Shown piece after piece: positions 391 to 22,636 of a stretch of 64,000 nt of DNA (within the stretch, counting starts at the first letter, position 1; each line of letters opens with the position of its first letter). The notes beneath the pieces are model-generated. The model made no database searches and was not told where the DNA came from. It saw nothing but the letters and a program-made list of their open reading frames with translations. A program made the translations under genes and the position numbers. The stretch is from Escherichia phage AV111: the sequence record OR352941.1; one strand, written 5' to 3'.

Positions 391-939
391 TTAACGAGCC
401 CATTTAATGATTTCTGTAATCAAATTATTACGTTCGCTTGCATTAAATCCTATAACTTTGTTAGAACCATCATGATTAAGTAATTGATACGTTTGGATTT
501 TGTTATGAATTGCAAACTCTTCAAAATGTGAAATGACTGTATTAAAACCGAATGAAGACAAAGTAATAAGGTCGTCTTCAAAACTTTCAGACATTTCGTT
601 ACGTGTTAAAATAATTGTGAACACATCATGGTTTTGGCAAAGACGAACATAATCCTGTTCATAAACGTCAAGAACCGAGTCCGCATCTTGTCGAATACGT
701 CCATAAACCCAGTTACTAATATATCCACGGTCTAACAGATAAATCTTAGTAGGGTCTAAATAATTCAACATCGTTTCGAAACAGCCAACTTCATTTCGAG
801 ACTTAACATCGAAACGTCCATCAACTGTTCGTTTAGGGAAATCAATCTTTACATATCTTTCACTAATTTCCATTATGTCATTAATGAAAGTTGTTTTACC
901 AGCATTATCTGGGCCATCTACTAAAATAATTTTAGCCAT
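391..939 (-). CDS. P-loop (Walker A GPDNAGKTT) nucleotide/nucleoside kinase-like protein, 182 aa
   Basis: ORF track; N-terminal MAKIILVDGPDNAGKTTF resembles dNMP/thymidylate-kinase-type P-loop; sits where T4 has beta-gt region genes. Confidence 0.6.
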   Translation of the reverse strand: MAKIILVDGPDNAGKTTFINDIMEISERYVKIDFPKRTVDGRFDVKSRNEVGCFETMLNYLDPTKIYLLDRGYISNWVYGRIRQDADSVLDVYEQDYVRLCQNHDVFTIILTRNEMSESFEDDLITLSSFGFNTVISHFEEFAIHNKIQTYQLLNHDGSNKVIGFNASERNNLITEIIKWAR

Positions 940-940
940 T

Positions 941-1840
941 TTATTCCTCGATTACGACATCTTCATATTTAGGTATATTATACGGCGAAGAAATTAAAGC
1001 GTTAAAGTAGATGAACTCACCAAGACCTGGATGGAATACTTCTTCAGGATTTTCGAAATATTGAATCTTCGGACGTCCTTTAAGAATTTGATAGTACTCA
1101 GTTTTAGTTGGATTAAAAATTCGAATCAGCGCTTCTTCAGGATACTTATTTCTGTCGAAACTATTATTTGGATCAGTTATATAAAGCGGTTGACCTAATT
1201 GAATTGCGCATTCAACCACTTGTTCAAAACGATAGCATGGGTCACTAATTCGAAATGGATGAAAAATACCATCTAGATGAATAGGAGCCAAATCACCTAC
1301 AAGACGCTGCATGACGGAAGGACGTATAACTTTCTGCGTTACGATAATCTTATTACCATCTGCACCTGCGTTAACCAGCACTTCTTTTTGACGTTCATTC
1401 AACACAGTAGTTTGAAGTGAACGATTAACAGACAACATGTCGGTTTTTAAGAATTCATCAATATAAAAACGTGGTTTATTAGGGTCTGCAGTGATATTGA
1501 AATTGAATTCTACATCAAAAGCGCCGTCATATCCAGTGATATCTGTGATTAGAAAATCGCAATCATAATAAGCAATTAATGAATCAACTACAAATTCATT
1601 TTCAGACCAGAAATATTTACGAGTGTTATACGCGTTATCTTTATACCATAATGGAACAAACTTAAATTCTGGAAAAAGACGTTCGCATTCTTTAATATCA
1701 GATGCATTACGTGGATATGTAATCACATCACCCGGATTAGCACGGTGCAAATGAAGTTGGAAGTTGCCATCCTTAAGGATAGCATACTGTCCAGTTTCAT
1801 AAGACCGCATACTCAAGATAGGTACGCGGAAAATAGCCAT
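941..1840 (-). CDS. hypothetical protein, 299 aa (occupies the T4 beta-gt position; function unknown, candidate transferase)
   Basis: ORF track; tightly packed between P-loop gene and 42-like gene (1-nt spacing/overlap); no recognisable motif by eye. Confidence 0.6.
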   Translation of the reverse strand: MAIFRVPILSMRSYETGQYAILKDGNFQLHLHRANPGDVITYPRNASDIKECERLFPEFKFVPLWYKDNAYNTRKYFWSENEFVVDSLIAYYDCDFLITDITGYDGAFDVEFNFNITADPNKPRFYIDEFLKTDMLSVNRSLQTTVLNERQKEVLVNAGADGNKIIVTQKVIRPSVMQRLVGDLAPIHLDGIFHPFRISDPCYRFEQVVECAIQLGQPLYITDPNNSFDRNKYPEEALIRIFNPTKTEYYQILKGRPKIQYFENPEEVFHPGLGEFIYFNALISSPYNIPKYEDVVIEE

Positions 1841-2556
1841 TAGTCAAGGAATCCTTTAACATAATCAAAATCACGTTCAAACACATGGGCACTTACCATG
1901 GTATGAGTATAATCACCAACTTCTACACCACATTCGTTAGCGATATAATGAAGTAATTTTCCTTGGAGATAAAAATCCAACTGCATAACAACAGCACAGT
2001 TCTGAGAACGCATATGACAGTGGGTATAAAGCTTACCATCACGAATATAATAAGTCACTGAGTCAGTACATGGATATTCAAGCGTTTCGTCTGAATCAAG
2101 CAAAGCCTGATCAGAACTTTCTAGAATTTGGAACACAACTCTTCGAGAGTTAGGCTTCTCTTTAAGTTCTTTTAGAAGAGCTGGTAATTGAGCCGCAATG
2201 CGAGGACCATAGAAAGTGTTGAAGTTCGCCGGCAAAACATCTGATTTTGGTTTAGAAATAAATTTAGCGACATTAGGATATGCCTTAAACGCTTCTTCTG
2301 CGTTGGTACCACCAGAAATCATAAACTTCCAGAAGTCTTCGGCATATTCATAAGAGATGCGGTTAATACGTGGGTCGGTCATTTTGAATGATGACGGAGT
2401 GTCAACAACTACTGTCATAGACCCAATTTCATTACAACGTCCAATACGAGAATCAGTTACGAATTCCGGGTTTTCTAAAATTTCACGATTGACTGCTTTA
2501 AATGCGGTTTGAAAATCTGCGGCTTTGATATATTTCATTGTGTTATGTTTTCCCAT
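1840..2556 (-). CDS. 42: thymidylate-synthase-family pyrimidine hydroxymethylase (gene 42 position, divergent dCMP hydroxymethylase homolog)
   Basis: Motifs PNSRRVVF, YPCTDSVTYYIRDGKL and HMRSQNCAVVMQLDF parallel the T4 gp42 PDSRRG / CTNTVQYLIRD / MRSNDVVFG blocks, but overall identity to T4 gp42 as I recall it is low. Confidence 0.7.
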   Translation of the reverse strand: MGKHNTMKYIKAADFQTAFKAVNREILENPEFVTDSRIGRCNEIGSMTVVVDTPSSFKMTDPRINRISYEYAEDFWKFMISGGTNAEEAFKAYPNVAKFISKPKSDVLPANFNTFYGPRIAAQLPALLKELKEKPNSRRVVFQILESSDQALLDSDETLEYPCTDSVTYYIRDGKLYTHCHMRSQNCAVVMQLDFYLQGKLLHYIANECGVEVGDYTHTMVSAHVFERDFDYVKGFLD

Positions 2557-2597: not shown

Positions 2598-2837
2598 TTA
2601 TTTGAATTTCTTGGCAGTGTTGATATAACGTAAAGCTTCAGCATCGATACTTCCAAGAACACTATGAAGAAATGCATCAGCGTAGTATTCCAATTGAACA
2701 GATTCTTTAATCACTTTAGCCGCTTTAGTTTCAAACAGGCCCATCAGGGCCTTTTTAAGAATTTGTTCATTAGTGTTCAGTTTCATAGTCAAAATCTCTT
2801 CATTAAGTTGGTGGTTAAAAGTTTTTCTAGAAATCAT
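2598..2837 (-). CDS. hypothetical protein, 79 aa
   Basis: ORF track; overlaps stop of upstream gene by 4 nt, operon-like packing. Confidence 0.45.
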   Translation of the reverse strand: MISRKTFNHQLNEEILTMKLNTNEQILKKALMGLFETKAAKVIKESVQLEYYADAFLHSVLGSIDAEALRYINTAKKFK

Positions 2838-3994
2838 TCCGGGTACCTCAAAGCGTCATCAGAGTTAGTTATATCAATAATAGATATAGAGTTTTCTGCT
2901 AACCCGTTTTTAGATAATTGACGTTTATAATATCTTTCACAATATGTACACGTCGTCCCGCAGATTTCATTAGCACAATCGAAATCTGGATGTCTGAACC
3001 ACCTTTTTTCTAAAAAGCCATCTAACAAAGAGGTTTCAATATTTACTGTATGTGAAAACTCAGTTTCGTTTTCAAGAGTGAAAATAGTCTCTAAAGGCTT
3101 CCACAGTTCTAACAAATTACCTTCAAACTTTTCAGAAGCGTATGCTTCAAGAACTTTCAAAATGTAGTCTGTGCTACCTGTACGTCCTGAAACTTTGAAT
3201 TGAGTGATACCAATATCATTATAAAGTTTCAAATCTTGAGGACGAACAAAACGAGTTCTCAACCAGTTAAATGGGTCTGTATCACGAGCTTTAATACAGT
3301 GCTGCATAGGATATCCGTTTAAGGATTTAGCATCATCAGCTGTAACATCAGTACTATGGAAAATATAGCAAGAGTCACGATAGCTACAATGTGTTGTATA
3401 CCCTTTACCAGCATTAGAACAGAACTCATTTACAAGAACTTCAAATATTATATTGTTCTTATTGCAAAACTCTGCTGCACGCTTCAGGAAAGAAACTGAA
3501 CGGTTCTTATGAATTCCACAGCAGACCTTTTTGATATTATATTGGTCATGCAAGTATTTGATTTGAGTTACAGCATCGACATGTAGAATTGTTGAAACTT
3601 CAATCTCAATGTCTTTATTGACTTCACGAACAATTTCCATAACAACAGGGTTAGCGATAGTAATACGCCATACGCCTATTGACCAAAGATACTGAACATA
3701 ATCCTGAATAGCTTTCTTCTTCCACTCAACTAGTTCTCTTTTTGAACCAGGATTTATCGTGTTGAGTGTATAGTTAAAGCAAATACCTAATTCGTTACAA
3801 CGTTTAACGTAATCTTCTAACATCTTTTTGTCAACGTCAGGAAGCCTAAAATCAGGTCTGGCTGCTACAAAAGCCATTTCTCTTGTAGAGCCGTATACTT
3901 CGTTTATCAAGCTATTAGGATAGGTTTTATTGAGCTCTACGATTTTATCAAGAAGAGCTAAATCAAAATTCGTTCCGATTTTAAAAGTATTCAT
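2834..3994 (-). CDS. cysteine-rich hypothetical protein, 386 aa (possible metal/Fe-S binding; modification-island gene)
   Basis: ORF track; C-terminal FDCANEICGTTCTYCERYY (Cx4Cx3Cx2C) plus other Cys clusters; no confident family assignment. Confidence 0.6.
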   Translation of the reverse strand: MNTFKIGTNFDLALLDKIVELNKTYPNSLINEVYGSTREMAFVAARPDFRLPDVDKKMLEDYVKRCNELGICFNYTLNTINPGSKRELVEWKKKAIQDYVQYLWSIGVWRITIANPVVMEIVREVNKDIEIEVSTILHVDAVTQIKYLHDQYNIKKVCCGIHKNRSVSFLKRAAEFCNKNNIIFEVLVNEFCSNAGKGYTTHCSYRDSCYIFHSTDVTADDAKSLNGYPMQHCIKARDTDPFNWLRTRFVRPQDLKLYNDIGITQFKVSGRTGSTDYILKVLEAYASEKFEGNLLELWKPLETIFTLENETEFSHTVNIETSLLDGFLEKRWFRHPDFDCANEICGTTCTYCERYYKRQLSKNGLAENSISIIDITNSDDALRYPE

Positions 3995-4056
3995 TTTTTT
4001 TGCATCTCGCGTTAATTGATGCGATGGTTTTTTTTTTGCAGGTCTTACTTAAATTA

Positions 4057-4458
4057 TTATAGATTCGGTTTATATGATTTAAATGTTTCGAATTCGCCTT
4101 TATTCATAAGAGCTTTGAATTCATCAGGACGCATAGCTTTGTCGTCGATAATCCAATCATATACTGGTTTATGTGTTAGCAAATTATGGTACTTCAAACC
4201 AATGTTTTCCAAGTTCTGAATAAGACTTGGGAGAATGTCAATTGCTATACGACCAGGACCTACTGACTTCATACCACGAGCAGTGTAAAGCGTTATGGTA
4301 TGCCCTGCATCATACAGGGCATTAATGGCAGACACCATTTCGACGTCTGGTTTGAAGTTCACGTAATCACGATTGTTATTCCATTCCGTGATGCAATCAT
4401 CGACATCAAAACAAAGATTAAGCATGTTTTCTACACAGTGCATTAGATTCGTTCCCAT
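4057..4458 (-). CDS. HAD-superfamily sugar-phosphate phosphatase (KdsC/GmhB-like), 133 aa
   Basis: N-terminal FDVDDCIT = HAD motif I (DxD); small size typical of HAD IIIA phosphatases; overlaps upstream gene end. Confidence 0.65.
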   Translation of the reverse strand: MGTNLMHCVENMLNLCFDVDDCITEWNNNRDYVNFKPDVEMVSAINALYDAGHTITLYTARGMKSVGPGRIAIDILPSLIQNLENIGLKYHNLLTHKPVYDWIIDDKAMRPDEFKALMNKGEFETFKSYKPNL

Positions 4459-6128
4459 TGATGAGTGATATCGCCACCGATTGGACGATAAGAAACACCA
4501 GTTTCTTTATCAGTTAGTACCCATTTACCAGGATTTTTTGTAATCAGAGTAGCCGTTACAGGTTCTGCTACGTCATAACTAATAGAGCCGTCTTGAAGTA
4601 CACGGCCCATGTTACGTAATTGCTTAGTCAGAAGTTCCATACCTTTATAATATGCTGCTACCGCTTTAAGTGGATTATTCTTGAAATAACCACCTAATGC
4701 AATCCAGATAATTGCTACAGCCAAATGATGATACTCGTTAAACGAACTCATCTTTCCATATTTGTAAACTAATGGATTGATGTTAATAGTCACATTACAA
4801 GTTGTTTCATCAATAGTAAACTGTCCCCAGGCCGGATTAGCATTGAATTCATCATAACCTGAAACAGCATAAAGCACTTTAGCTTCATCATACAATTTTG
4901 GCCCGTAAATCTTGGTTTCGCCAAAATATCCACGAGGGTCGATAAACTTGACTTCGCCGTTATCAGTAATCATAGTATTACTGAAGTTCGGGTCACCATG
5001 AATAACAGAGTACTGTCCCTGAGAACGGTTATGATAACGAATAAGGTGTTCTAAAGCTTGTTTCAGCATTGGCTTCAGACGTCCAATCTTAGTGTAGTTC
5101 ACATGTGTGATTTTACCAAATGAATCAATCAATGGTTGAATACTTTCACAACGATCAATAACTTTCGTATAGAATTCTTTAGTGAAATCACGACGAACAG
5201 TTTCAGGACTTACAAAATAAGTGTCTGTGCTGAATTTCAGTGCATCTAAAATTGCATCAACAATTTGTGGACGAGCAAGACTTGATTTGGATTTAATATA
5301 TTCAAATGCCGGCTTACCTTTAATGCGTTCCATTTCAAAGTTATTTTCATTAACAGAAACTAACTGAGGAACTGAATCTGATTTCACTTTAAGATACCAC
5401 GAAATCTCATCTTTCTGAAGAGCTCGACCCTGTTCGGTTAATGCGAATTTAGTTACAGTTTCTTCACCAATTTCAACTGCATTAAAACTACGATTAAGTT
5501 CACGAACTTCATGAGCTTTTTCAAGTTTAGGCATATCACCTAAATCAATTAGATTCATAAGCTCTGATTTATTGAATGCGCTGCCGTAAAGGAATTCTAC
5601 GAAATCACGTCCTTTGCAGTATTCATGAATTTCCTCATCGGTAGAACCCATATAGAATTCCCAGTCTTTGAACTGATAAATTCCTACAACATTACCACCT
5701 GTTGAACCTACGTTAGTGATATTTTCACCGTCGAAATTATATCGACATTCATCACCCTTAACATAGATTGCGTTAACATTCCAAGACCATGAACCAAAAT
5801 CAGGAATAATATCACACCAGTTAACAATTACGTTATGGCCGTCTAAATCTTTGTGTAATTTAGCAAGAGCATAAGCAGAACCATACGCTTCATCAACTGT
5901 ACGAATAGTCACATTGAACCCTTCTTGCTCACAATAAGCTCGAACAGTTTCAGCAAATTTTGAATGAACTACTACAATAATTTCATCTGCGCCAAGGTCA
6001 GAATAAATTGTATACAAATTGCTCAGAATAGTGTCTTGTTTATAGTTAACAAGCACCTTAGGAATATGATGCGTTATTGGATACAAACGAGTTGCCAGTC
6101 CAGCACCAAGAATAACAGCTTTTTTCAT
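4443..6128 (-). CDS. bifunctional sugar-1-phosphate nucleotidyltransferase (N-terminal) / sugar anomeric kinase (C-terminal APH/ChoK-like), 561 aa
   Basis: N-terminus MKKAVILGAGLATRLYPITHHIPKVLV = GxGxRLxPxT pyrophosphorylase signature; C-terminus VIHGDPNFSNTMITDNGEVKFIDPRGYFG = HGDxxxxN catalytic loop of APH/choline-kinase fold. Confidence 0.75.
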   Translation of the reverse strand: MKKAVILGAGLATRLYPITHHIPKVLVNYKQDTILSNLYTIYSDLGADEIIVVVHSKFAETVRAYCEQEGFNVTIRTVDEAYGSAYALAKLHKDLDGHNVIVNWCDIIPDFGSWSWNVNAIYVKGDECRYNFDGENITNVGSTGGNVVGIYQFKDWEFYMGSTDEEIHEYCKGRDFVEFLYGSAFNKSELMNLIDLGDMPKLEKAHEVRELNRSFNAVEIGEETVTKFALTEQGRALQKDEISWYLKVKSDSVPQLVSVNENNFEMERIKGKPAFEYIKSKSSLARPQIVDAILDALKFSTDTYFVSPETVRRDFTKEFYTKVIDRCESIQPLIDSFGKITHVNYTKIGRLKPMLKQALEHLIRYHNRSQGQYSVIHGDPNFSNTMITDNGEVKFIDPRGYFGETKIYGPKLYDEAKVLYAVSGYDEFNANPAWGQFTIDETTCNVTININPLVYKYGKMSSFNEYHHLAVAIIWIALGGYFKNNPLKAVAAYYKGMELLTKQLRNMGRVLQDGSISYDVAEPVTATLITKNPGKWVLTDKETGVSYRPIGGDITHQWERI

Positions 6129-6169: not shown

Positions 6170-6313
6170 CTAGTTAAAGCATTCATACTTTGCTTGTAGT
6201 CCAATCATAATCCATCCAATTACAAGTGTTGGAATCATTACCGGAGCCGTTAAGCTCCAGTAGATAGTCATGACAAGCATCAATAGTAAAAGTCCTATTG
6301 TTATTGCTTTCAT
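6170..6313 (-). CDS. small hydrophobic membrane protein, 47 aa (not in ORF track; imm-region small protein)
   Basis: Own translation MKAITIGLLLLMLVMTIYWSLTAPVMIPTLVIGWIMIGLQAKYECFN; ATG overlaps stop of SIS gene (ATGA). Confidence 0.4.
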   Translation of the reverse strand: MKAITIGLLLLMLVMTIYWSLTAPVMIPTLVIGWIMIGLQAKYECFN

Positions 6314-6945
6314 TGTTCGCCTCGTAACATGGCACCTAGTGCACCGCCTGGATGGAACTTAAGGAAATCATTAGAGGTAAATCCACGTTCAGACGAAAGG
6401 TTGATAGCAAACGTATCGATAAGCGCTAACAACAATGTAGTGGACATTGTCGGAGCTAAAGAGTTCTCGTCAACTTCTACCGCGATACCGGTACAGAACG
6501 TATAATCAAAAAGAGCTTCGTATTCTTGTGGAATGTCAGGGTTACAATGTAACAGAATCTGTTTAACCTGAGGACGAATCATACGAAGATGTTTAGCAAC
6601 ACCTATCATTTCTTCAGTCTTACCAGAACGACTGATGTGAACTAATACATCATTAGGTGCAATAAATCCTGCGTCACCATGAGAATAATGCCCAGTGTTC
6701 AAGTACATACTCGGGATACCGAGTGAAGCAAATGTCTCAGAAGCTTTAGTTGCGATATTAGCATTCTTACCAACACCTGTAATAATTACCCGGCTTTCAT
6801 AATTGCTAAGTCCGGGGCGTCGAAGAGTTTCTAGAATAGCATTATAACGAGCAGGGTTTTGACTAATTACTTTGGCCATAGCGGCCAAAGAAGAAGCTTG
6901 TTTTATGATTGCGTCAATAGCGATAGTAATAGGAGTAGTTTTCAT
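6310..6945 (-). CDS. SIS-domain sugar-phosphate isomerase (KdsD/KpsF-type arabinose-5-phosphate isomerase-like, no CBS domains), 211 aa
   Basis: RVIITGVGKNANIATKASETFASLGIPS...HGDAG resembles the KdsD GxGKSxxIxxKxAATxASTGTP...HGDLG core rather than the GmhA GNGGS motif. Confidence 0.7.
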   Translation of the reverse strand: MKTTPITIAIDAIIKQASSLAAMAKVISQNPARYNAILETLRRPGLSNYESRVIITGVGKNANIATKASETFASLGIPSMYLNTGHYSHGDAGFIAPNDVLVHISRSGKTEEMIGVAKHLRMIRPQVKQILLHCNPDIPQEYEALFDYTFCTGIAVEVDENSLAPTMSTTLLLALIDTFAINLSSERGFTSNDFLKFHPGGALGAMLRGEQ

Positions 6946-22165: not shown

Positions 22166-22636
22166 TTAATCATGTTTCCACACCCCATCGGTATTTGACC
22201 AAAGTCGCTGATTATCTGATCCTCGCCACAGCTTTTTAGTCGGAAGATTTTTCTCATACTTCCCATCAATAATAACATCAACATATTTAAGCATTTCTAG
22301 TTGTTTAATATCTTCAAACTTATATCCTGTCCACAACCAAATGCTTTTATTGGGATAAAGATTTTTTACTGTTTGAACAATGCAATGAATAACATCTCGA
22401 TTATCAGGATAGAGAGGGTCTCCTCCGGTTATAGTCAATCCTTCTATATAATCGTTATTCAAACATTCAATTAATTGTTCTAGTGTTTCACCAGTGAATG
22501 GAATACCATTTCTAGCATTCCATGTTGATTTATTATAGCACCCTTCACATTTATGCAAACAACCTGTAACGAAAAGAACGACCCTGCATCCAGGGCCATT
22601 CACAAAATCGCAAGGATAAAATCTATCATAATTCAT
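22166..22636 (-). CDS. nrdG: anaerobic ribonucleotide reductase activating protein (radical SAM)
   Basis: 156 aa; CDFVNGPGCRVVLFVTGCLHKCEGCYN. Confidence 0.92.
   Translation of the reverse strand: MNYDRFYPCDFVNGPGCRVVLFVTGCLHKCEGCYNKSTWNARNGIPFTGETLEQLIECLNNDYIEGLTITGGDPLYPDNRDVIHCIVQTVKNLYPNKSIWLWTGYKFEDIKQLEMLKYVDVIIDGKYEKNLPTKKLWRGSDNQRLWSNTDGVWKHD

Follow-up and report, generated by a model that had tools for sequence, protein, structure and literature searches.

We analysed a 64,000-nt stretch of Escherichia phage AV111 (sequence record OR352941.1; this whole stretch is called the window below), in which a gene at 2834..3994 encodes a 386-aa protein of the U32 family. With confidence only somewhat above even, we infer that the phage U32 protein is an O2-independent, prephenate-dependent pyrimidine C5-hydroxylase, which backs up or replaces an O2-dependent enzyme. 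The hydroxylase activity is suggested by the family, by the 5-hydroxycytosine (5hoC) chemistry of the locus, and by the distribution among hosts and anaerobes. The neighbouring kinase and deaminase genes suggest that the substrate is probably a mononucleotide rather than DNA.

The protein would hydroxylate C5 of a pyrimidine deoxynucleotide, and here it would most likely convert deoxycytidine monophosphate (dCMP) to 5-hydroxy-dCMP. The oxygen atom would come from prephenate and not from O2, as has been proposed for UbiU/V, TrhP and RlhA. RB69-like phages would use U32 as the anaerobic counterpart of the neighbouring 5-hydroxy-dCMP (5hodCMP) synthase, a flavin- and O2-dependent enzyme resembling thymidylate synthase (TS), and arabinosyl-5-hydroxycytosine DNA could be built over the whole oxygen range of the enteric host. 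In many TS-less phages of anaerobes, it would be the only hydroxylase upstream of the kinase and glycosyltransferase (GT) steps.

In the cited literature, the U32 proteins with an assigned molecular function are all O2-independent ring-hydroxylation factors (PMC5727448, PMC6599085, PMC6747719, PMC10990095). RlhA is responsible for 5-hydroxycytidine in E. coli 23S rRNA (the same four papers jointly), and TrhP for 5-hydroxyuridine in E. coli tRNA, where it is paired with the O2-dependent TrhO (PMC6599085). UbiU/V replace three flavin monooxygenases anaerobically, with the oxygen atom coming from prephenate (PMC6747719, PMC10990095). Conserved four-Cys Fe-S motifs are present in most U32 subfamilies (PMC6747719, PMC11574389). 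The published hydroxylase for arabinosyl-5-hydroxycytosine needs O2, yet the phages infect gut bacteria that often grow without O2. As U32 lies one small gene away from the O2- and flavin-dependent 5hoC enzyme and the host is a gut facultative anaerobe, this is the same dual-pathway arrangement as in the known U32 systems. Full-text searches revealed no earlier statement of the U32 hydroxylase idea for phage DNA; they did not extend to the paper on the HY126 Afh genes by He et al. 2026 (Nat Chem Biol) or to Mahler et al. 2025 (Cell Host Microbe), where an earlier proposal may exist.

A U32 protein outside the known subfamilies

The gene and its two cysteine motifs are as follows.

2834..3994, minus strand: U32-family protein, putative Fe-S protein; ATG start, 386 aa, PF01136, PHROG 5757; orthologue RB69p050 (ORF050c)
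3296..3421, minus strand: motif 1, C192-x10-C203-x5-C209-x23-C233; putative [4Fe-4S] site, homologous to the UbiU cluster
2939..2977, minus strand: motif 2, C340-x4-C345-x3-C349-x2-C352; clade-specific C-terminal four-Cys site

A preliminary description of this DNA, made from the letters alone, had found no motif in the protein that could be placed with confidence. This is superseded by the match of residues 94-286 to Pfam PF01136 (Peptidase_U32), which scored 42.2 bits against a gathering score of 22.4. The AlphaFold2 model of the protein had a pLDDT of 93.5, and its best fold match was PDB 5d88, the U32 domain of Mk0906. When the phage clade was compared with E. coli UbiU, UbiV, TrhP and RlhA by hhalign, residues 53-287 were aligned with 96.6% probability (E 5e-10). 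The profile alignment paired phage C203, C209 and C233 with UbiU C169, C176 and C232, which are three of the four [4Fe-4S] ligands of UbiU established experimentally (PMC6747719). The loop carrying the fourth UbiU ligand is deleted in the phage protein, and the near-invariant C192 is at hand as a candidate substitute. The ligand spacing in the phage protein is C-x10-C-x5-[C/H]-x23-C, compared with the canonical CX6CX15CX3/4C and the UbiU variant CX6CX16CX38C. Judged by its sequence and model, the protein is a member of the U32 iron-sulfur family, and it very probably has a metal or Fe-S centre.

The protein is placed by its sequence outside the UbiU, UbiV, RlhA and TrhP subfamilies. Its score with the NCBIfam UbiU equivalog was 18.5 bits, far below the cut-off of 440, and none of the other NCBIfam subfamily models, including those of RlhA and TrhP, matched it. 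Among E. coli proteins, TrhP and RlhA had the best scores with the clade profile, but these were weak. Instead, the protein belongs to a separate U32 clade of 1,185 representative clusters, most members of which are 340-390 aa long with an extra C-terminal four-Cys motif. A PDB sequence search with the single protein and with a 110-sequence profile gave nothing meaningful; the lone match, BIM1 (E 0.015), was judged a chance one.

Two other families were considered and rejected. C345-x3-C349-x2-C352 resembles the CX3CX2C motif of radical SAM enzymes. However, PF04055 did not match at E ≤ 0.01, the motif lies beyond the barrel, at the very C-terminus, and C340 is conserved as a fourth Cys. As for a DNA glycosyltransferase, no GT family was matched in Pfam, NCBIfam or PHROGs, and no glycosyltransferase was among the listed structural matches.

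The window protein is 99.5% identical to RB69 ORF050c (RB69p050). The nonsynonymous divergence (dN) of the gene is 0.09-0.14 and its synonymous sites are saturated (dN/dS ≤ 0.07); these sequence comparisons indicate strong purifying selection. The HAD gene and the U32 start are separated by a 62-nt spacer (3995..4056), which has two long runs of A, A10 at ~4029-4038 and A8 directly before the ATG, and shows no obvious Shine-Dalgarno sequence.

Two conserved cysteine motifs

The preliminary description had reported a cysteine-rich 386-aa open reading frame (ORF) at this place. The ORF is real and has 13 Cys. They make up 3.4% of the protein, the second highest fraction among the 60 window ORFs of at least 120 aa, of which the median is 1.3%. 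The highest fraction (4.5%, 7 Cys) was in a 156-aa ORF at 22166..22636 on the minus strand.

Motif 1 is the more conserved of the two motifs. Among 119 representative clusters, C192 is kept in 118, C203 and C233 in all 119, and position 209 is Cys in 73 and His in 45. The alternation of Cys and His at this position is typical of a metal ligand. The C-terminal Cx4Cx3Cx2C cluster noticed earlier is also present as motif 2 and is conserved in the family. All four of its Cys are invariant among 110 homologues down to 47% identity, and they are retained in 111-113 of the 119 clusters (~94%) down to ~28% identity. On sequence grounds, this conservation is far beyond chance, and motif 2 is putatively a second Fe-S cluster or a Zn site. 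No counterpart of motif 2 was aligned in UbiU, UbiV or TrhP, the motif being outside the aligned region (residues 53-287). C66, C72, C158, C159 and C177 are not conserved family-wide. With U32 membership and three of the four UbiU [4Fe-4S] ligands on conserved Cys, the metal or Fe-S centre that had been suspected is very likely.

Prephenate-supply genes beside U32

Enterobacter phage Entb_45 and Serratia phage LC53 have a gene between U32 and TS that overlaps both of its neighbours by start and stop codons. It encodes an AroQ chorismate mutase, an enzyme that produces prephenate; the CM_2 scores are 40.9 and 44.6 bits (gathering score 27). The phage chorismate mutase keeps the catalytic residues R11, R28, K39, S84 and Q88 of the E. 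coli enzyme. The chorismate mutases of four of the loci we surveyed (numbered L001 and so on), L008, L009, L039 and L040, pass the CM_2 test. Among 18 T4-like loci, chorismate mutase adjoins U32 in 15; it is absent from the window, L010 (identical to the window across the U32 gene) and L011. Of 50,697 phage records, 51 have a chorismate mutase of the T4-like type. It is beside the TS homologue in all 51 rows, and a peptidase or U32 is named in seven of them. This neighbourhood is the slot where chorismate mutase adjoins U32 in two annotated records and in the surveyed loci.

Similar genes were found far from the T4-like phages. In 12 of 34 unrelated loci from viruses or metagenome-assembled genomes (MAGs), U32 has DAHP synthase, chorismate mutase or their fusion beside it or in its vicinity: L004, L024, L035, L037-L040, L052 and L054-L057, with Pfam or NCBIfam confirmation for L004, L039 and L040. 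The non-T4 loci show several distinct gene arrangements, so the link between U32 and prephenate-supply genes arose repeatedly. This linkage suggests that the phage U32 protein is putatively dependent on prephenate.

Fusions of DAHP synthase and chorismate mutase occur on viral and MAG contigs at L035:8411-9433, L038:7302-, L039:8332-9387 and L037:9-, and in L054. The L039 fusion scores 84.8 bits with Pfam DAHP_synth_1 and 86.1 bits with CM_2. These fusion genes are shikimate-pathway auxiliary genes, and one HAD-like gene stands between the fusion and U32.

In the window, another small gene is next to U32.

2598..2837, minus strand: 79-aa ORF (ORF79), PHROG 8601; its ATG overlaps the U32 stop codon (ATGA)

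ORF79 had no Pfam match. It sits beside the slot that is occupied by chorismate mutase in most related genera. Pectobacterium- and Yersinia-type relatives have the gene order U32, ORF79, chorismate mutase, TS, and four loci (L012, L017, L020 and L025) carry ORF79 and chorismate mutase together. In the lineage of the window, chorismate mutase is absent and ORF79 alone remains. We rejected ORF79 as a degenerate AroQ chorismate mutase: it gave no CM_2 match at E ≤ 10, and R11, R28, S84 and Q88 are absent, with only K39 kept.

U32 loci without the TS-like enzyme

No TS homologue was found within 10 kb on either side of U32 in 33 of the 34 non-T4 loci. Most of these TS-less loci have retained genes for a Tmk-like kinase and a GT-like protein, and in many there are also genes for a SIS isomerase and a nucleotidyltransferase/kinase (NT-kinase). 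With TS absent within 10 kb and the kinase and GT-like genes kept, U32 is the sole candidate source of the acceptor hydroxyl there. By their gene content, the TS-less loci are a minimal set to hydroxylate, phosphorylate and glycosylate. Tmk-like homologues adjoin U32 in many loci, with Pfam confirmation in L027 and L036. Homologues of the GT-like protein of the window (941..1840) are near U32 in most of the distant loci. The locus labels came from iterated searches, and one ORF in L044 received both the Tmk and the GT label; key ORFs were therefore rechecked with Pfam. The labels of chorismate mutase, DAHP synthase and Tmk held in this recheck, and the GT-like proteins had no Pfam match, as is true of the 299-aa protein of the window.

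Elsewhere, U32 is beside genes for dCMP deaminase (overlapping), dUTPase/MazG, uracil-DNA glycosylase (UDG), NT5C and deoxynucleoside kinase. The wider context of the clade includes genes of deoxynucleotide metabolism and of prephenate supply. In a 466-kb phage-like contig (L001:9447-11086), the dCMP deaminase gene overlaps the U32 start, and upstream are genes for a Tmk-like kinase, UDG, MazG/dUTPase and a radical SAM/SPASM protein. This context suggests that the U32 substrate in some phages may be deoxyuridine monophosphate (dUMP), giving 5-hydroxyuracil DNA. Three Bacillota-type loci (L002:7135-17428, L003 and L053) have the order methyltransferases, U32, NT5C, nicotinamide mononucleotide (NMN) transporter, deoxynucleoside kinase, AlaX-like protein, radical SAM/SPASM protein, a second divergent U32 and nucleoside 2-deoxyribosyltransferase. 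This island may be a nucleoside-modifying pathway with two U32 paralogues.

Distribution among hosts

We counted 221 phage records with U32. Of these, 209 fall under the ten commonest organism names, all Enterobacterales; among the rows listed, the remaining hosts are Pectobacterium and Shewanella. The TS homologue extends further, to 57 Acinetobacter and 20 Rhizobium phage records. The hosts Acinetobacter and Rhizobium are aerobes. None of the listed Acinetobacter or Rhizobium phages has U32. Direct inspection of Acinetobacter phage Konradin (L050) showed the order HAD, TS, GT, with neither U32 nor chorismate mutase; Konradin also carries an NT-kinase gene. Escherichia phage Bp7 (L051, Dhakavirus) has TS-like, NT-kinase, HAD and GT genes and likewise has neither U32 nor chorismate mutase. 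The part of Bp7 that was inspected showed no SIS isomerase.

Among 185,579 species genomes, the U32 clade occurred in six MAGs, all of anaerobic lineages: Erysipelotrichales, Bacillota, Gastranaerophilaceae, Romboutsia (two) and Clostridium. A search of the window for the glycyl-radical motif of an anaerobic ribonucleotide reductase found nothing.

The modification island of the window

The window is a segment of a T4-like phage; over the first 7 kb it shares 98-99% identity with many Mosigvirus (RB69-like) coliphages. An ORF for a 903-aa family B DNA polymerase adjoins the modification island and is followed by clamp-loader and clamp genes. Besides U32 and ORF79, the island comprises the following genes.

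391..939, minus strand: thymidylate-kinase-like nucleotide kinase; PHROG 761; orthologue RB69p045
941..1840, minus strand: GT-like protein, 299 aa, predicted first DNA arabinosyltransferase; PHROG 3891; orthologue RB69 gp46:47 (PMC13326640)
1840..2556, minus strand: TS homologue, flavin- and O2-dependent dCMP 5-hydroxylase (5hodCMP synthase); Pfam Thymidylat_synt; orthologue RB69 gp48
4057..4458, minus strand: HAD-type phosphatase; NCBIfam TIGR01689, PHROG 1238; orthologue RB69 gp51, analogue AfhF
4443..6128, minus strand: bifunctional sugar-1-phosphate nucleotidyltransferase / kinase; Pfam NTP_transferase and kinase-like matches; orthologue RB69 gp52:53, analogue AfhE
6310..6945, minus strand: SIS-domain arabinose-5-phosphate isomerase; Pfam SIS, NCBIfam KpsF/KdsD, PHROG 5670; orthologue RB69 gp55

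U32 is between the TS-family gene (1840..2556) and the sugar cassette, with one small gene separating it from the TS homologue. The preliminary description was correct as to this position, and its assignment of the protein to a DNA-modification island is supported. However, it took the TS-family neighbour for a hydroxymethylase and the DNA for hydroxymethylcytosine DNA. This premise is outdated, as the neighbour makes 5-hydroxy-dCMP and not hydroxymethyl-dCMP (PMC13326640). RB69 DNA contains mono- and di-arabinosyl-5-hydroxycytosine, and RB69 gp48 was shown by experiment to convert dCMP to 5-hydroxy-dCMP with flavin and O2, the oxygen being derived from 18O2 (PMC13326640). This TS-like enzyme needs reduced flavin and binds flavin mononucleotide (FMN) loosely (PMC13326640). 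Because the gene at 1840..2556 is the orthologue of gp48, the product of the island is arabinosyl-5-hydroxycytosine and no derivative of hydroxymethylcytosine.

The sugar cassette (SIS isomerase, kinase/nucleotidyltransferase and HAD phosphatase) yields uridine diphosphate (UDP)-arabinofuranose. The AfhF-type step converts arabinose-1,5-bisphosphate to arabinose-1-phosphate, and the AfhE-type enzyme makes UDP-arabinofuranose (PMC13326640). The 299-aa GT-like protein has no Pfam match. As gp46:47 is the predicted first arabinosyltransferase and RB69 gp3 the predicted second one (PMC13326640), no transferase is missing from the pathway. The earlier suggestion that the U32 protein might be the missing transferase is therefore abandoned, since no GT family was matched in Pfam, NCBIfam or PHROGs, none stood among the listed structural matches, and these roles are predicted for the orthologue at 941..1840 and to gp3. 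The genes at 941..1840 (299 aa) and 4443..6128 (561 aa) are each one intact ORF here and two apiece in the RB69 reference record. The RB69 splits of gp46:47 and gp52:53 were ascribed to sequencing errors (PMC13326640).

In Table 1 of PMC13326640, RB69p050 is labelled "Sugar or heterocycle reductase", from the 5d88 fold match and no experiment. The discussion of the same paper cites pyrimidine hydroxylation by TrhO/TrhP and RlhA, without a tie to gp50. The gene is not discussed in the 2018 RB69 paper, the Thanatos paper or the Durham collection paper.

Weighing of the proposed role

Several observations weigh against an O2-independent hydroxylase. In vitro hydroxylation has not yet been shown for any U32 enzyme (PMC10990095). 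The U32 enzymes known so far act on RNA or on a prenylated quinone precursor, and none on mononucleotides. In E. coli, RB69 gp48 suffices to give 5hodC, which makes U32 dispensable under aerobic conditions. Similarly, Bp7 infects E. coli without U32, which makes U32 accessory and not required for infecting a facultative anaerobe. In the hhalign alignment, the fourth UbiU ligand is unaligned and the Cys spacing is non-canonical. The absence of TS from the distant loci is known only within 10 kb on either side. U32 accompanies the sugar cassette about as often as nucleotide genes, and a sugar substrate would also be compatible with the context taken alone. Finally, the lineage of the window is without chorismate mutase and would rely on PheA and TyrA of the host.

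The same chemistry might act at another level, on cytosine in DNA after replication (or on dCTP) and not on dCMP. We regard this as unlikely. The pyrimidine-directed U32 enzymes characterized so far do act on rRNA and tRNA, and PMC13326640 leaves the level of the first arabinosylation unresolved. However, the phage protein consists of the bare barrel plus a small Cys tail; the long C-terminal regions seen in RlhA (653 aa) and TrhP (453 aa) are missing from it. A Tmk-like kinase repeatedly adjoins U32, as do dCMP deaminase, NT5C or deoxynucleoside kinase in some loci, which points to mononucleotides. The complete replacement of C also follows the pre-replicative logic of T-even phages. A modifier of host or phage tRNA or rRNA that would tune translation during infection in the manner of TrhP or RlhA is opposed by the absence of RNA-enzyme C-terminal regions, and also by the score of 18.5 bits against 440 for UbiU and the lack of a match to the RlhA or TrhP model. 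By chemistry, the closest characterized relatives act on RNA, and the best (weak) E. coli scores were those of TrhP and RlhA. Nevertheless, the gene is embedded and translationally coupled in the DNA-modification operon of T4-like loci, and U32 travels with GT-like and Tmk-like genes in unrelated phages. An RNA target is highly improbable.

A redox enzyme for sugar tailoring or for a heterocycle, acting on arabinose or a nucleotide-sugar precursor, would agree with the label in Table 1 of PMC13326640. Both in the window and in many distant loci, U32 has the sugar cassette (HAD, NT-kinase, SIS) as its neighbour, and an epimerase/dehydratase-family gene is near U32 in L004. The main ground for disfavouring this explanation is that RB69, which has U32, and DLP3, which lacks it, both have unmodified arabinose on 5hoC. 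In addition, several loci have Tmk-like, GT-like and U32 genes but no SIS or NT-kinase gene, L001-L003 are without any sugar genes, and no U32 enzyme is known to act on a sugar. We consider it quite unlikely. The preliminary description had also raised a sugar-modifying redox step. Its redox part is likely to stand, but sugar tailoring is not, as DLP3 without the gene has the same plain arabinose chemistry.

The linkage to chorismate mutase and DAHP synthase would be left unexplained by sugar redox chemistry, and also by a role as electron-transfer partner of the TS-like hydroxylase, in which electrons would pass through the two Cys clusters to its loosely held FMN. The requirement of the TS-like enzyme for reduced flavin, its loose hold on FMN, the two putative Fe-S sites of U32 and the distance of one small gene between them are in line with such a partner. 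Yet gp48 is active in E. coli without U32, the phages of Acinetobacter and Rhizobium and the Dhakavirus have the TS enzyme without U32, and 33 of the 34 non-T4 U32 loci have no nearby TS homologue. Electron transfer therefore seems very unlikely. A genuine peptidase or collagenase can hardly be credited. It is the meaning of the database names ("peptidase", "collagenase-like protease", "U32 family peptidase"), but the name is historical, and the U32 proteins with an assigned function in the cited literature are hydroxylation factors (PMC6747719, PMC11574389). The metal-ligand motifs and the context of nucleotide and shikimate genes also offer no proteolytic rationale.

The O2-independent hydroxylase can be extended, more tentatively and at a little less than even confidence, to the whole clade. 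It might be a widespread viral route to hydroxylated pyrimidine deoxynucleotides via prephenate. Many phages of anaerobes would rely on it alone for base hydroxylation on the way to O-glycosylated DNA, backed by phage shikimate genes, and in enteric T4-like phages it would be the anaerobic twin of the flavin-dependent TS-like enzyme. If this is true, prephenate-dependent U32 chemistry would extend from RNA and quinones to DNA precursors, and the phage-borne chorismate mutase and DAHP synthase would be explained. By our own rough estimate, ~62,000 cytosines per genome and a burst of ~100 would require ~6 million oxygen-donor molecules per cell. With a small soluble substrate and a compact single chain, the phage protein could be the first U32 hydroxylase reconstituted in vitro, which could allow prephenate to be tested directly as oxygen donor. 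The gene would also be a marker predicting hydroxylated, glycosylated DNA in uncultured phages of anaerobes, with a bearing on restriction evasion, phage therapy and sequencing.

Comparison with known systems

RlhA (YdcP), which makes 5-hydroxycytidine-2501 of 23S rRNA, has the same Pfam domain and the same product base. It is dependent on prephenate and iron and independent of O2, and its segment AYSGQCYISHA (from residue 171) aligns with SYRDSCYIFHS of the phage protein. In contrast, RlhA has 653 aa with additional domains and targets one rRNA residue; the phage clade does not share its CX6CX15CX3C spacing, and the Cx4Cx3Cx2C tail is absent from RlhA. TrhP (YegQ) and TrhO resemble the phage pair in that an O2-independent, prephenate-dependent U32 protein and an unrelated O2-dependent hydroxylase give the same product (PMC6599085). 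However, their substrate is tRNA, TrhP has 453 aa, and the two E. coli genes are not adjacent, whereas the phage genes are in one operon.

The best profile alignment was with UbiU-UbiV, in which UbiU C169, C176 and C232 correspond to phage C203, C209 and C233, and which back up flavin monooxygenases. They differ in being a heterodimer with one cluster per subunit, a lipid substrate and a need for UbiT; in the phage protein, one chain carries two four-ligand motifs. Mk0906 of Methanopyrus kandleri (PDB 5d88, 247 residues) has 14% identity, and the region of the C-terminal Cys motif is absent from it.

RB69 gp48 and DLP3 gp80 share the proposed product, 5-hydroxy-dCMP, and the pathway, and are functional analogues rather than homologues. 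They have the thymidylate-synthase fold, FMN and a strict dependence on O2, and they are also present in phages of aerobes. The CmoA/CmoX system of phages for 5-carboxymethylcytosine is similar in that a prephenate-consuming bacterial RNA-modification enzyme was co-opted for DNA hypermodification (PMC12783734). There, however, prephenate is the carboxyl donor to S-adenosylmethionine (giving Cx-SAM) and not an oxygen donor, and Pfam, NCBIfam and PHROG scans of the window locus revealed no CmoA-like methyltransferase. Compared with the known U32 hydroxylases, the phage enzyme would be new in being phage-encoded, in its single chain with two four-ligand motifs, and in its DNA-precursor substrate.

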